A stretch of DNA of 64,000 bases from Candidatus Doudnabacteria bacterium (GCA_963768175.1 CAVYGQ010000002.1:80284-144283); one strand, 5' to 3'; positions 3,513-7,309 are shown, counted from the stretch's first letter. Made by a program: numbers and translations. Notes: generated by a model not told the origin, from the sequence alone.

Positions 3513-4541
3513 ATGTTTTATATAAATTCTTTTTTAGCTTTTGAAGTTTTTGGGTTTATTGCCTTTGCGGCAATTTTGGCCAGGGAAATTTACCAGCGCA
3601 ACAACCTTCGGGTTTTTGAAATAATCAGTTGCGCTGTTTTCGGCATAATTCTGGAAGTAGGTGATATCTATTTGAGCAAGGCATATTCCTATAATTCCGC
3701 GTTTTTGGTAAAAGTAGCCGGGGTGCCTTTGGTCATCGGTTTTGGTTGGGCCGTTATTGTTTATTGCGCTATGTTGCTTAGCGACCAGTATCATATACCG
3801 TGGACATTACGGCCGTTTATGGACGCGCTGACAGCCGTAATCTTGGATTTGGCTGTAGACACGGTTGCCATTAGGTTGGCTTATTGGAAATGGTCCATCC
3901 CCTTAGACCAGGAATTTTACGGAGTGCCCTTAGAAAATTTAATCGGTTGGGCGCTGGTAGTTTTGGCCTTTTCTTTTGTTATCAGGTTTATTAGGACTTT
4001 AAACGTAAAAAGGACTTTAACAAAAATCTTAATGATTTTAAGTCCGGCGATTGCCTATGTTTTGCTTATTATCGGATTGTTTATTTCCCATTTAGTTATT
4101 TTACTGCCGTACCAAATCAACCATTGGCCCGCTAAAATAATATTTAATTCCCATTTGGATTTGGCAGTCCTTTATAGCCCGCAAGTCCAGATTTGGAAAG
4201 CGGCGGTATTTGTTATTTTGCTGGTGGAGCTGGTAAATATTGTGGTTTGGGCTATAGTAAAAAACCGCCGTAAATATCTTTGGCGGTTTGACCTGTTGTC
4301 GTTTATTATTATGTCCAGTATGTACCTGTTCTTTTTTATCGCGACCTTTGCCGCGGGTATCGACCGTCAGGTACCAATTTTGGTGATTATTAGTTTAATC
4401 TCATTTTTCGCGTATTGCCTGCTGCACTTTTTGCCTTACCTTTTGCGTCCCGGTACGGTCTATTTTTTCAAAGACGTGGAGCAGGTTTTAAAGAAAGAGG
4501 AAAAAAAGGTGGAAAAAATTATCCAGGCGGAGTTTAAATAA
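3513..4541 (+). CDS. polytopic integral membrane protein, function unknown
   Basis: 342 aa, about 9 hydrophobic segments, lysine-rich C-terminal tail; no recognisable catalytic motif. Confidence 0.5.
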   Translation: MFYINSFLAFEVFGFIAFAAILAREIYQRNNLRVFEIISCAVFGIILEVGDIYLSKAYSYNSAFLVKVAGVPLVIGFGWAVIVYCAMLLSDQYHIPWTLRPFMDALTAVILDLAVDTVAIRLAYWKWSIPLDQEFYGVPLENLIGWALVVLAFSFVIRFIRTLNVKRTLTKILMILSPAIAYVLLIIGLFISHLVILLPYQINHWPAKIIFNSHLDLAVLYSPQVQIWKAAVFVILLVELVNIVVWAIVKNRRKYLWRFDLLSFIIMSSMYLFFFIATFAAGIDRQVPILVIISLISFFAYCLLHFLPYLLRPGTVYFFKDVEQVLKKEEKKVEKIIQAEFK

Positions 4542-4676
4542 AAGCGTTTTTATGGCGAAAACAGAATCCTCGGCCAAAAGCCGGGGAATTTTTAAAAAGA
4601 TATGAATTGTGGATAACCAATTAGACTTTCTATTTTCTTTCTATTATAATATTTAGGTATTAGGGCTTTCAAAAAT

Positions 4677-6239
4677 ATGCTAACAAAGAAACAAAAACAA
4701 GTCTTGGATTTTATTACGGAATACAGCAAAAAGCACGGTTATGCCCCTTCTTTGGAAGAGATCCAGAGGCATTTTAAACTTGCCTCGGTTTCCACGGCGC
4801 ATTTTCACGTTGCCAAACTTGGGAGCTTGGGTTATTTGCAGAGAGAGGAAGGTAAACCTAGGGCTATCGAATTATACGAATCTGGAAATATGGTTCAAAT
4901 ACCTTTGCTTGGCACAATTGCGGCGGGCGAACCGATAGAAGCTCTTGAGCAAAAAGAAACTATTGCTATTTCCAAAACCAATTTGCCTGGTAGCGGAGAT
5001 TTTTTTGCCTTACGCGTTAAAGGCAATAGCATGATAGATGAAAACATTAACGATGGCGATATGGTCTTAATAAAACATCAAGAGACGGCTAATAATGGTC
5101 AAAAAGTAGTAGCTTTAATAGATAATAATGAAGCGACCTTAAAAAAGTATTATAGAGAAAATGGACACATTAGGCTGCAACCAGCAAATAAATCGCTTTT
5201 TCCTATTATTATCAAAAGAGACAGGGATATAAAAATTCAGGGAGTAGTGTTAGATGTTATACGGGAAGAAAAGTTTATTACTATTCCGTTACTCGAAACT
5301 AAGTCGGAAACCCAAGAGTATAAAAAGTTACCCATAAACGAAATTTTATGCGGTGATTCAATAGAAGAAATGAAAAAAATTCCTGATAGCATAATTGATA
5401 TGACATTTGCTGACCCACCCTTTAATTTAAATAAAAAATACGGCAACTATAAAGACAAAAAAGACGCCGAAGATTATATAAAATGGTGTGAACTTTGGTT
5501 GACTGAAATGGTTAGAATCACAAAACCAACGGGTTCAATTTTGGTGCATAACATTCCAAAGTGGTTGATATATTATGCTAACCATCTCAATAAAATTGCT
5601 TTCTTTAAACACTGGATTGCCTGGGACTCAATGAGCATACCATTGGGGAAAACTTTATTACCTGCTCATTATGGCGTATTGTTTTATACGAAATCCCCCA
5701 AAGGGTTTAAATTTCATGACCTTAGATCACCCCATAAAAAATGTAGGAACTGCGGCAAGATGATCAAAGATTACGGAGGAAAAAAAGACCAGATTAATCC
5801 TTATGGAACTCTTTTAAGCGACGTTTGGACGGACATACACCGGATTAGACATAATACGCGTAGAGATGCCCATCCATGCCAGCTTCCCGAGCCTTTACTG
5901 GAACGTTTGATTTTGATGACAACAGACGAAGGTGACGTAGTCTTGGATCCATTTATTGGTGCCGGGACTACCGCTTTAGCCGCCAAAAGACTTGGACGTA
6001 ACTATATTGGTATTGATATAGACCCAAAATATAAAAAAATTGTCGCCGACAAGCTCAAAAAAGTAAATTATAGGTCAAGTAATGGTTATAAGTACAATGG
6101 AGATCCAATTGAAGTTGCGTCTAAATATTTAAGAAATTTGACAATATCAGAAGACGAAGGAGTACATCCTATAGACAGTCCACAATATTTTGGTAAAAAA
6201 AATCAGAATATTAAAGTTACTAGCGCTACACTTTTTTAA
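4677..6239 (+). CDS. LexA-like repressor (wHTH + S24 peptidase) fused to a beta-class N4/N6 DNA methyltransferase
   Basis: N-terminal LexA DNA-binding fold and linker IPLLGTIAAGEPIEA; peptidase motifs GNSM and KK; then GDSIEE..FADPPFNL (motif IV), zinc-finger insert CRNCG, and C-terminal VLDPFIGAGTTALAAKRLGRNYIGIDID (motif I). One uninterrupted 520-aa ORF. Confidence 0.8.
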   Translation: MLTKKQKQVLDFITEYSKKHGYAPSLEEIQRHFKLASVSTAHFHVAKLGSLGYLQREEGKPRAIELYESGNMVQIPLLGTIAAGEPIEALEQKETIAISKTNLPGSGDFFALRVKGNSMIDENINDGDMVLIKHQETANNGQKVVALIDNNEATLKKYYRENGHIRLQPANKSLFPIIIKRDRDIKIQGVVLDVIREEKFITIPLLETKSETQEYKKLPINEILCGDSIEEMKKIPDSIIDMTFADPPFNLNKKYGNYKDKKDAEDYIKWCELWLTEMVRITKPTGSILVHNIPKWLIYYANHLNKIAFFKHWIAWDSMSIPLGKTLLPAHYGVLFYTKSPKGFKFHDLRSPHKKCRNCGKMIKDYGGKKDQINPYGTLLSDVWTDIHRIRHNTRRDAHPCQLPEPLLERLILMTTDEGDVVLDPFIGAGTTALAAKRLGRNYIGIDIDPKYKKIVADKLKKVNYRSSNGYKYNGDPIEVASKYLRNLTISEDEGVHPIDSPQYFGKKNQNIKVTSATLF

Positions 6240-6906
6240 GATTTTTAGAGGCTTCTTTTATAATCAACTTGTGTTTTTTGATTATCCGTTTTGATCTATA
6301 AATAACAGTTTTATAGAACAACTGTTGGAATTGGTTTATACTATTGATTTGAGATTTTTCTTCAAAGTTTTTTGGCCGTAAATTACCATCTTTTTCTCTA
6401 TATTTTAGTACCCTTCCGCTGTTAAGACTTAGGAATTTATAGAAAGGTTTTATTTCAATATTTAAAACTTCTTTTATTTTATCGTTGAAGTTGTAGGTTA
6501 CAAAAATAAAATAAATATTTTCCCCTCCGAATTTTTTTATTTTCTGTTGCCATTCATTAAGCGTACCCAGGTCATTCTCGCTATTTTTTACCGTAACCCA
6601 TTTGCCCTTTCTGTATTGGCTTTTGTTTCCAGATTTGAATTCTAATGCAAGCGGGGGTTTGGTTTTTAATTCAAAATCAGGAAAATAATTTTTGCTTGGA
6701 GCAACTGCGTAATCTGCTTTACTTTTGATAAAACCCTTTTTTGTGAATATCTTAACTAGAATATCAGTAAGTGGCTCTTCAATGTCAGTGCCAAAAGTGC
6801 GATAGCCAAAAGTTTTAGCGACGATAACTCTTTTGAGATAATTTAATATTGCAGTTCTTGAAAGCAATAAAAGATTAAGCGTCTTTATAGATTTTTTGTT
6901 CGTCAT
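6226..6906 (-). CDS. putative type II restriction endonuclease (PD-(D/E)xK fold)
   Basis: 226 aa; FPDFELK ... ALEFK gives a PD...ExK arrangement; convergent with and overlapping the methyltransferase gene; directly downstream of the C-protein-like gene. Confidence 0.5.
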   Translation of the reverse strand: MTNKKSIKTLNLLLLSRTAILNYLKRVIVAKTFGYRTFGTDIEEPLTDILVKIFTKKGFIKSKADYAVAPSKNYFPDFELKTKPPLALEFKSGNKSQYRKGKWVTVKNSENDLGTLNEWQQKIKKFGGENIYFIFVTYNFNDKIKEVLNIEIKPFYKFLSLNSGRVLKYREKDGNLRPKNFEEKSQINSINQFQQLFYKTVIYRSKRIIKKHKLIIKEASKNLKKV

Positions 6907-6910
6907 ATTA

Positions 6911-7132
6911 TTATTTTAAAAAATACTCTATAGATTTTTTATAAAGTTTCGCGAATTCTTTAAGTTGAATGGCGTCTATTCTTAATTGGCCAGATTCAAC
7001 TTTCGAAATATAGGATTGATTTTTGCCAAGATTTTTAGCAACGCTTAATTGATTTAGCTTTGCTTTAAGCCTGGCTTTCTTAAGTCTTTTAGTAAGACGT
7101 TTATACTCCTCAGAATAAATTGCTTTAAACAT
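6911..7132 (-). CDS. XRE-family HTH protein, controller (C) protein-like
   Basis: 73 aa; QLSVAKNLGKNQSYISKVESG helix-turn-helix; 4-nt gap to the nuclease gene on the same strand. Confidence 0.7.
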   Translation of the reverse strand: MFKAIYSEEYKRLTKRLKKARLKAKLNQLSVAKNLGKNQSYISKVESGQLRIDAIQLKEFAKLYKKSIEYFLK

Positions 7133-7219
7133 ATATAGGTATATTATATTCCAAAATGTAATATTCCAATTTAGAATATTTGTTGAAAAATAAAAACCCC
7201 TTGAAGTAAGGGGATTTTA

Positions 7220-7309
7220 TGGCGGAAGCGGAGGGATTCGAACCCTCGAGCCCTTTGACAGGCTGCGCGCTTTCCAAGCGCGTGCACTAGACCACTATGC
7301 GACGCTTCC
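7220..7309 (-). tRNA. tRNA-Ser (anticodon GGA)
   Basis: Reverse complement folds as a cloverleaf: acceptor GGAAGCG/CGCTTCC, anticodon loop TTGGAAA, long variable arm, T-loop TTCGAAT, encoded CCA; 90 nt. Confidence 0.9.

Follow-up and report, generated by a model that had tools for sequence, protein, structure and literature searches.

Why would the methyltransferase of a restriction-modification system carry a complete copy of LexA, the self-cleaving SOS repressor, at its N-terminus? The question is raised by a locus in a 64,000-nucleotide stretch of DNA from Candidatus Doudnabacteria bacterium (GCA_963768175.1 CAVYGQ010000002.1:80284-144283), hereafter the window, in which a LexA–methyltransferase fusion gene faces a candidate nuclease gene preceded by a small regulatory gene. 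Type II enzymes endanger their host when repair, recombination or replication restart leaves sites unmethylated, and how they cope is largely unexplained. To our knowledge, Patescibacteria mostly lack CRISPR and rely on restriction-modification, and because of this general reliance the regulation of such systems matters for their biology. Positions 4600-7215 are best explained as a Type II restriction-modification module that is horizontally mobile, complete in itself and governed by two control circuits independent of each other. In the reading that we favour, with moderate confidence, the fusion would repress its own promoter, and RecA-stimulated self-cleavage would derepress the methylase and lead to damage-induced restriction alleviation. 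The three genes are as follows:

4677-6239, plus strand: LexA–methyltransferase fusion gene, a single uninterrupted open reading frame (ORF) of 520 aa
6226-6906, minus strand: restriction endonuclease gene, an ORF of 226 aa, convergent with the fusion ORF and overlapping it by 14 bp
6911-7132, minus strand: controller (C) gene, a 73-aa helix-turn-helix (HTH) protein of the XRE family, on the same strand as the nuclease gene and 4 nt ahead of it

An earlier interpretation of this stretch, the sequence-only reading, had described the 520-aa ORF as a complete LexA joined to a beta-class methyltransferase. Profile searches of both halves recovered the three expected Pfam domains, all with scores far above the curated cut-offs, and the motifs were read directly from the translation:

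4680-4865 (residues 2-63), plus strand: LexA_DNA_bind winged helix (PF01726), 58.9 bits
within the winged helix, plus strand: recognition helix S37-V-S-T-A-H-F-H44, nearly invariant among 77 fusions
4902-5249 (residues 76-191), plus strand: Peptidase_S24 catalytic/dimerisation domain (PF00717), 103.4 bits
4923-4928, plus strand: codons of Ala83-Gly84, the predicted LexA self-cleavage bond, aligned with E. coli A84-G85
5028-5030, plus strand: codon of Ser118, in the motif GNS118M
5142-5144, plus strand: codon of Lys156, in the motif TLK156K
5394-6044 (residues 240-456), plus strand: beta-class N6_N4_Mtase domain (PF01555), 177.7 bits
5412-5423 (residues 246-249), plus strand: methyltransferase motif IV, DPPF
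residues 356-359, plus strand: CxxC element, C356-x-x-C359
5952-5972 (residues 426-432), plus strand: methyltransferase motif I, FIGAGTT

Each of the motifs that had been listed was found in place (IPLLGTIAA83/G84EP, GNS118M, TLK156K, D246PPF, C356xxC359 and F426IGAGTT). Residues 2-197 scored 186.7 bits against the NCBIfam lexA equivalog TIGR00498 (cut-off 110.95), and in a search of the PDB residues 2-196 aligned colinearly and end to end with Thermotoga LexA (3k2z; E 3.8e-39), as they did with the entries of E. coli LexA. The beta-class enzymes MboIIA, CcrM and RsrI were aligned with residues 219-462, and the PADLOC profile MTase_II matched the C-terminal half with 239 bits. The AlphaFold model of the full-length fusion reached pLDDT values of ~80-88 in the LexA half and 30-45 in the methyltransferase half, with a pTM of 0.31, and at this quality says nothing usable on how the domains pack or how the cleavage loop is shaped.

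Among 5.8 billion proteins searched, >100 clusters at 65-79% identity share the three-domain architecture, and with one genome scanned for each GTDB species, a relative is encoded in 226 genomes. Given this recurrence, the fusion is genuine and not a mis-join; the concern that two genes had been wrongly joined is further removed by the cluster of the 520-aa protein itself, which has members both on the 192.7-kb NCBI/ENA contig and in an independent read assembly. The clusters lie on independent contigs of up to 804 kb (Ga0265297_10000012) and, where a name is given, all come from Patescibacteria. The 226 genomes are spread over numerous candidate phyla (Parcubacteria lineages, Levy-, Roizman-, Dojka-, Uhr-, Falkow- and Moranbacteria, among others), with two copies in some metagenome-assembled genomes (MAGs). 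The architecture had been called unusual, which holds against characterised systems and fails within Patescibacteria, where it is common. Homologues are often annotated by NCBI as 'transcriptional repressor LexA'. As a side observation, several cassette-bearing contigs (L019, L020, L026, L035, L045, L072 and L080) belong to MAGs whose label is Gammaproteobacteria, Ignavibacteria, Melioribacter, Sphingobacteriaceae or Hyphomicrobiales, which may reflect mis-binning, mislabelling or real transfer beyond Patescibacteria.

Whether the LexA part could still cleave itself was assessed in an alignment of 77 fusions, with the E. coli LexA sequence as positional ruler (consistent at its landmarks A84, G85, S119 and K156). 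The S24 catalytic dyad, S118 and K156, and the Ala83-Gly84 pair, which align with E. coli S119, K156 and A84-G85, are invariant in 77/77 fusions. By comparison, 26/197 columns of the LexA module (13%) are invariant overall, and pairwise identity is as low as 47%. By every sequence-level criterion the module is thus apparently a cleavable LexA. After cleavage, the predicted DNA-binding fragment would end in I-A-A in 68/77 fusions, a terminus similar to V-A-A, by which ClpXP recognises E. coli LexA after its cleavage. Cutting at Ala83-Gly84 would remove the DNA-binding domain and leave the methyltransferase joined to the S24 dimerisation domain. Two outcomes of cleavage had been offered, namely regulation of the methylase and release of its catalytic domain; since the predicted cut detaches only the DNA-binding domain, regulation fits better and release of the catalytic domain is disfavoured. 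In the window and the related loci, to which the scan was confined, E. coli probes gave no tblastn match to recA, dnaA or a second lexA. RecA is reported to be encoded in almost all genomes of the Candidate Phyla Radiation (bioRxiv 10.1101/2024.06.21.600076).

The region upstream of the fusion gene offers a candidate operator in the following arrangement:

4608-4616, minus strand: 9-mer TTATCCACA (reverse complement TGTGGATAA), ~5 nt upstream of the -35 hexamer
4622-4650, plus strand: promoter of the fusion gene, matched at 10/12 positions in a promoter scan
4622-4627, plus strand: -35 hexamer TAGACT, separated from the -10 by a 17-nt spacer
4627-4633 and 4638-4644, plus strand: putative operator, direct repeats TTTCTAT with an 11-bp period that fill the spacer between -35 and -10
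4645-4650, plus strand: -10 hexamer TATAAT, directly after the second repeat

The same order recurs upstream of the 73 fusion genes compared: TGTGGATAA, a gap of 1 or 10-15 nt, a -35-like hexamer, TTTC(T/G)AT-N4-TTTCTAT and the -10 TATAAT, with the promoter/repeat cassette conserved in 64/73 loci. A weight matrix built on the repeat scored 39.4 bits at the fusion promoter, its sole hit of at least 10 bits in the 64-kb window; the related loci, 662 kb in all, added a single strong site, in front of the second fusion at L076. The element is therefore taken as an autoregulatory operator and not as an SOS box shared with repair genes in the DNA scanned, and a repressor bound at the spacer repeats would occlude RNA polymerase. 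The sequence-only reading had suggested a search for an operator palindrome, and palindromic LexA boxes, of the Gram-positive GAAC-N4-GTTC and the E. coli CTGT-N8-ACAG types, were looked for upstream of the fusion. None was found: a dyad enrichment scan gave only AT-rich noise, and the conserved element is a direct repeat. For LexA proteins that read direct-repeat operators there are precedents in several phyla (PMC7739468, where a study of Patescibacteria is cited for such a motif).

In variant lineages, both copies of the repeat change together and track residues 41 and 43 of the recognition helix: TTTCTAT is paired with the helix S-T-A-H-F-H, TTTCGG or GTTCGG with S-T-(I/V)-H-(E/Q)-H, and TTTCGA with S-T-(A/I)-H-H-H. 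This covariation supports the LexA domain as the probable reader of the direct repeats. As to the transcript, many loci (L019, L033, L038-L043, L046-L048, L057-L066 and others) show TATAAT followed by ATCAG/C-T-ATG, which leaves ~7-8 nt between the -10 and the start codon, and for this reason their fusion mRNAs are probably leaderless; other loci, the window included, have a leader of 20-45 nt.

The 9-mer upstream of the promoter was evaluated separately. We take TTATCCACA to be the consensus DnaA box, as established from E. coli and B. subtilis. A perfect copy is found in 52/73 fusion upstream regions (~70%) against 6/4,616 background windows of 130 nt; with one mismatch allowed, the figures are 68/73 (93%) and 144/4,616. 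The commonest variants are TTATCCCCA, TTTTCCACA and TTATTCACA. The 9-mer is constant across the operator classes, and inverted in L001 and L015; such constancy agrees better with an unvarying host factor than with the LexA domain, which co-evolves. DnaA may bind the 9-mer; if so, methylase expression would also sense replication status. The possibility that the 9-mer is the methylase's own recognition site was rejected, as it does not change between loci with nucleases of different specificity families.

The gene that converges on the fusion had been proposed as a PD-ExK nuclease. A confident structure model of the 226-aa protein shows a PD-(D/E)xK fold similar to that of EcoRV and SwaI, and its candidate catalytic residues are conserved:

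6676-6678, minus strand: codon of candidate catalytic residue D77
6640-6642, minus strand: codon of candidate catalytic residue E89
6634-6636, minus strand: codon of candidate catalytic residue K91

An assignment as an EcoRV-like restriction endonuclease is supported by this model. Sequence identity to the blunt-cutting family of EcoRV, SwaI, NlaIV and HincII is just 13-17%, no match was found in the Pfam, NCBIfam or PADLOC profile libraries, and all 247 members of the protein's family are annotated 'hypothetical'. In three loci with otherwise different genes, a convergent and overlapping gene of ~225 aa (57-67% identity) follows the fusion, and the pair of fusion and 226-aa nuclease was retrieved from 14 loci with unrelated flanks; methylase and nuclease appear to be inherited together as a unit. 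This co-inheritance in unrelated contexts, the EcoRV/SwaI fold of the model and the known nucleases at sister loci (described below) bear out the earlier assignment of the three genes to a Type II module.

The small gene upstream of the nuclease had been likened to a C protein. It matched Pfam HTH_3 with 42.5 bits; similarity to the PADLOC profile Control_protein is weak (18.3 bits, E 4.8e-4), with generic XRE matches scoring higher. Its homologues (45-62% identical) lie on the opposite strand, 0.5-1.3 kb downstream of the fusion, in 31 loci and beside unrelated nucleases. A conserved element precedes it:

7146-7180, minus strand: C-box, made up of the inverted arm AATATTC at 7180-7174 and, with a 15-bp period, two TTGGAATAT boxes at 7169-7161 and 7154-7146

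The start codon of the C gene follows 13 nt after the C-box. Upstream of the C genes of ~30 loci, a two-site element has the consensus TATCCCATTTTGGGAT(T)ATACCACAATAGGATATA, abbreviated TATCCCATTTTGGGAT...AATAGGATATA. Profile match, conserved C-box and position upstream of the nuclease support the earlier comparison, and the 73-aa gene would behave as a controller protein. A two-site C-box with a C gene is the classical controller-protein layout (PMC12707154). Neither the LexA operator nor the 9-mer was found at the C promoter, and no C-box was seen at the methylase promoter. The C gene is present in only ~40% of the loci and is therefore accessory to the core of LexA-methylase and nuclease. 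Just outside the C-box, 60-110 nt upstream of the C start, many loci with different neighbours (L022-L026, L036, L048, L062, L072 and L075) carry a conserved GC-rich inverted repeat (e.g. TTGCCCTTGACCCACCCAACCCATTCGCGGGCAA), which could be a terminator or a cassette boundary.

Put together, these elements suggest the following mechanism. The LexA winged helices, as a dimer, would bind the tandem TTTCTAT-N4-TTTCTAT in the fusion promoter, so that the methylase would keep its expression down to a low maintenance level. Entry into a naive cell would find the promoter unrepressed and the methylase would be made first, with the nuclease delayed by the C circuit. RecA filaments formed on single-stranded DNA after damage, at stalled forks, during recombination or on incoming DNA would then stimulate the S24 domain to cut Ala83-Gly84, detaching the DNA-binding domain with its ClpX-like I-A-A tail and leaving the S24–methyltransferase part intact. 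The promoter would be derepressed and methylase output would rise. No terminator was predicted between the convergent methylase and nuclease genes in a terminator scan of the window; because the two genes converge and overlap without one, stronger methylase transcription may also interfere with, and dampen, that of the C and nuclease genes. The net effect would be damage-induced restriction alleviation, with the DnaA-box 9-mer upstream of the promoter probably adding the replication-status input. In the second circuit, the C protein would bind the C-box and control the operon of C and nuclease genes, delaying and limiting the nuclease as in classical C systems.

The structural and comparative parts of this account are near certain; what we infer from them is that the fusion binds DNA, that it cleaves itself and needs RecA to do so, that DnaA binds, and in which direction the physiological effect would go. 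Several points weigh against the proposed mechanism. The window and the examined flanks contain no recA. The covariation has an exception in L008, which has a TTTTGC-type repeat and the same helix as L056, and the helix–operator classes lack phylogenetic independence, as cassette lineages co-inherit both. The bulky C-terminal methyltransferase could alter LexA dimerisation or RecA access, and cleavage could raise or lower net protection. Furthermore, three relatives (P0111, P0115 and P0116; L091:2185-3363 and L092) combine the same nuclease and methyltransferase (>80% identical) with a short LexA-type winged helix that lacks S24; a working module can therefore do without the cleavable part. 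These S24-less variants favour an explanation by autoregulation only, in which the LexA part, much as the HTH does in M.SsoII, would only supply a dimeric DNA-binding unit for repression of the methylase promoter and would mount no damage response in vivo; the privacy of the operator to fusion promoters agrees with it, and autorepression by HTH-methylases is an established mode (PMC12707154). A pure dimerisation role, however, needs none of the Ala-Gly, Ser and Lys residues that stay invariant in all 77 fusions while 87% of positions vary, nor does it explain why the lexA equivalog cut-off is well exceeded, and we consider autoregulation without a damage response unlikely.

Cleavage might instead destabilise or inactivate the methylase, so that the nuclease would kill the cell upon an SOS signal, e.g. 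from a phage, as in abortive infection or addiction. Restriction-modification modules are known to kill when methylation drops, cleaved E. coli LexA fragments are generally known to become protease substrates, and the new I-A-A C-terminus is conserved. Yet this degron-like end would sit on the small DNA-binding fragment, away from the methyltransferase, the position of the operator predicts more methylase after cleavage, and a module spread over hundreds of lineages would pay dearly if ordinary DNA damage were lethal; damage-triggered self-destruction is quite improbable. That the fusion is the host's global SOS repressor, controlling repair genes elsewhere as well, is suggested by its passing the LexA equivalog model, by the NCBI label given to its homologues and by the lack of a stand-alone lexA in the 64-kb window. 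We judge it very improbable: over the window (about a third of the 192.7-kb contig) and the 662 kb of related loci, the operator is confined to fusion promoters, and the module is low in G+C against its flanks, sits in unrelated genomic contexts and recurs within a MAG as two or more copies that bear different methyltransferases. The chance that adjacent lexA and methylase genes were wrongly joined by assembly or annotation is next to nil. The only sign of it is one copy (L090:1843-3492) whose halves were called as separate LexA-like and methylase genes, and there the split is caused by an in-frame stop in the last S24 strands, in contrast to the one continuous ORF of the independent clusters, of the species genomes and of the two assemblies of the window protein. 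The L090 copy is either decaying or affected by a sequencing error, and its interpretation as a natural two-gene 'split' (Rosetta-stone) form was rejected, as a stop within the S24 domain marks a disrupted fusion. Repression of the methylase's own promoter, relieved by RecA-stimulated self-cleavage, thus remains our preferred explanation, and SOS coupling of the balance between restriction and modification, as the sequence-only reading had proposed, is plausible and strengthened by the comparative evidence.

The distribution of the LexA part was analysed by splitting the query into its parts and searching each against 86 loci. The LexA part is 57-70% identical across loci, even where the methyltransferase part falls to 26-33%. 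A convergent gene abuts or overlaps the stop codon of the fusion in 71/78 loci, and these partners belong to at least ten unrelated nuclease families, four of which were recognised: RE_TaqI (110.8 bits), RE_MamI (129.6 bits), Endonuc-BglII (72.7 bits) and an Endonuclease VII/HNH type (57.7 bits). A clustering of the methyltransferase halves at 50% local identity was over-merged and was not used. When the LexA part alone was searched against 1.84 billion cluster representatives, its nearest relatives (53-67% identity) were nearly all 430-890 aa long, and stand-alone LexAs of ~200 aa appeared from ~58% identity (one protein of 213 aa) and were common only at 52% or less. Pfam searches of the longer LexA-S24 relatives identified fusions to gamma-class N6_Mtase/Eco57I/TaqI_C enzymes, to a C5 cytosine methylase and to permuted N6_N4 enzymes. 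The LexA module is accordingly a portable cassette that has been fused to at least three unrelated methyltransferase classes (beta, gamma and C5); it follows that the selected link is that between LexA and modification methylases in general. Two loci deserve separate mention. At L029:4001-7390, in a protein of 1,129 aa, LexA-S24 is followed by two methyltransferase domains, the first of the beta class (N6_N4), the second of the gamma class and TaqI-like, with TaqI_C. At L076 (1763-3418, and from 5751 on), one contig carries two distinct LexA-methylase fusions separated by 2.3 kb, each with its own 9-mer and direct-repeat cassette, and cross-talk between co-resident cassettes with similar recognition helices seems possible.

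The edges of the module in the window are delimited by the following features:

4567-4587, plus strand: left edge of the module, a predicted intrinsic terminator belonging to the membrane-protein gene that precedes it
7197-7213, no strand assigned: predicted bidirectional terminator hairpin in the interval between tRNA-Ser and C-box, right edge of the module
7220-7309, minus strand: tRNA-Ser(GGA), just past the module

The neighbours are housekeeping genes, with a PEP-utilising enzyme and the membrane protein upstream and dnaG and rpoD downstream. G+C is 0.28-0.32 over positions 6001-7000, across the genes for nuclease and C protein, and 0.38-0.47 in the housekeeping genes on either side, a composition consistent with a foreign origin of at least that half. 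Unrelated contexts, the partly low G+C, several copies per MAG and a large serine recombinase found at L090, 0.6 kb past the C gene, indicate probable horizontal mobility of the module. No integrase was found within it. In IMG/VR, a close relative was found on one viral contig only, and a mainly phage-borne module was rejected on that account. An imperfect direct repeat of 32 nt (72% identity, core TTTTATGGCG) flanks the module at 4534-4565 and 7201-7232, its right copy overlapping the 3' end of tRNA-Ser(GGA); it may be an att-like insertion scar or a chance resemblance.

A review of 2025 lists four modes of Type II control, namely promoter methylation, HTH fusion, antisense RNA and the C protein, so that an HTH-fused methylase is one of the four; damage-induced restriction alleviation is treated there solely for Type I systems, and LexA is never mentioned (PMC12707154). 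No published description of LexA/S24–methyltransferase fusions was found in the full-text literature searched, whose coverage leaves out most subscription journals. Tentatively, and as a possibility that we take seriously, the fusions would form a large undescribed class of Type II systems in Patescibacteria, in which a portable LexA with a private promoter is placed on any methylase class and couples self-protection to the RecA signal and, via the DnaA box, to replication status. If true, this would be the first case of damage-induced restriction alleviation for Type II systems, the first of LexA self-cleavage co-opted by a mobile defence module, as opposed to a phage or the host SOS regulon, and a fifth control mode beside the four textbook ones. 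LexA would then be a mobile regulatory part that has recombined with at least three methyltransferase folds and ten nuclease families, and a methylase wired to LexA self-cleavage would directly answer how Type II systems cope with damage. In practical terms, hundreds of Patescibacteria entries named 'transcriptional repressor LexA' are methylase fusions and could mislead the reconstruction of SOS regulons, and the 247-member family of the 226-aa protein can now be annotated as EcoRV-like restriction enzymes.

Among known systems, those of the M.SsoII, M.Ecl18kI, M.EcoRII and M.MspI type likewise have an N-terminal DNA-binding domain fused to the methylase, an operator in their own promoter and autorepression (PMC12707154). 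The operator lies within the methylase promoter here as in the SsoII/Ecl18kI type, a correspondence that for the present module is drawn from comparison only. The differences are considerable: the regulatory domain of the SsoII/Ecl18kI type is a simple HTH of ~70 aa, whereas here it is a complete LexA with winged helix, cleavable linker and S24; methylase and nuclease genes are divergent there, with a shared regulatory region in which methylase binding activates the nuclease promoter, but convergent here, with a 3' overlap. In addition, the present operator is a tandem direct repeat, the nuclease stands behind a separate C gene and C-box, and methyltransferases of the beta, gamma and C5 classes all carry the same cassette. 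With the LexA SOS repressor (TIGR00498; 1jhh, 3k2z), the fusion shares full-length colinearity, the Ala-Gly site and the Ser/Lys dyad, and it differs by a C-terminal methyltransferase of 320 aa, its place in a mobile module and an operator found only at fusion promoters, none being found at repair genes. C-controlled systems with a convergent methylase (Esp1396I-like; C proteins of PvuII and BamHI) have in common with the module the small HTH gene directly before the nuclease and transcribed together with it, the two-site C-box and the methylase on the opposite strand; here, in contrast, the methylase has its own LexA-based circuit and similarity to the PADLOC control protein is weak. Finally, damage-induced alleviation of Type I restriction, as in EcoKI, has the same outcome as the one predicted here, in that self-restriction is tempered at sites left unmodified after damage and repair (PMC12707154). 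In EcoKI this is achieved by ClpXP, which degrades HsdR, whereas in the present module it would be brought about by transcriptional derepression of the methylase through self-cleavage of its repressor.

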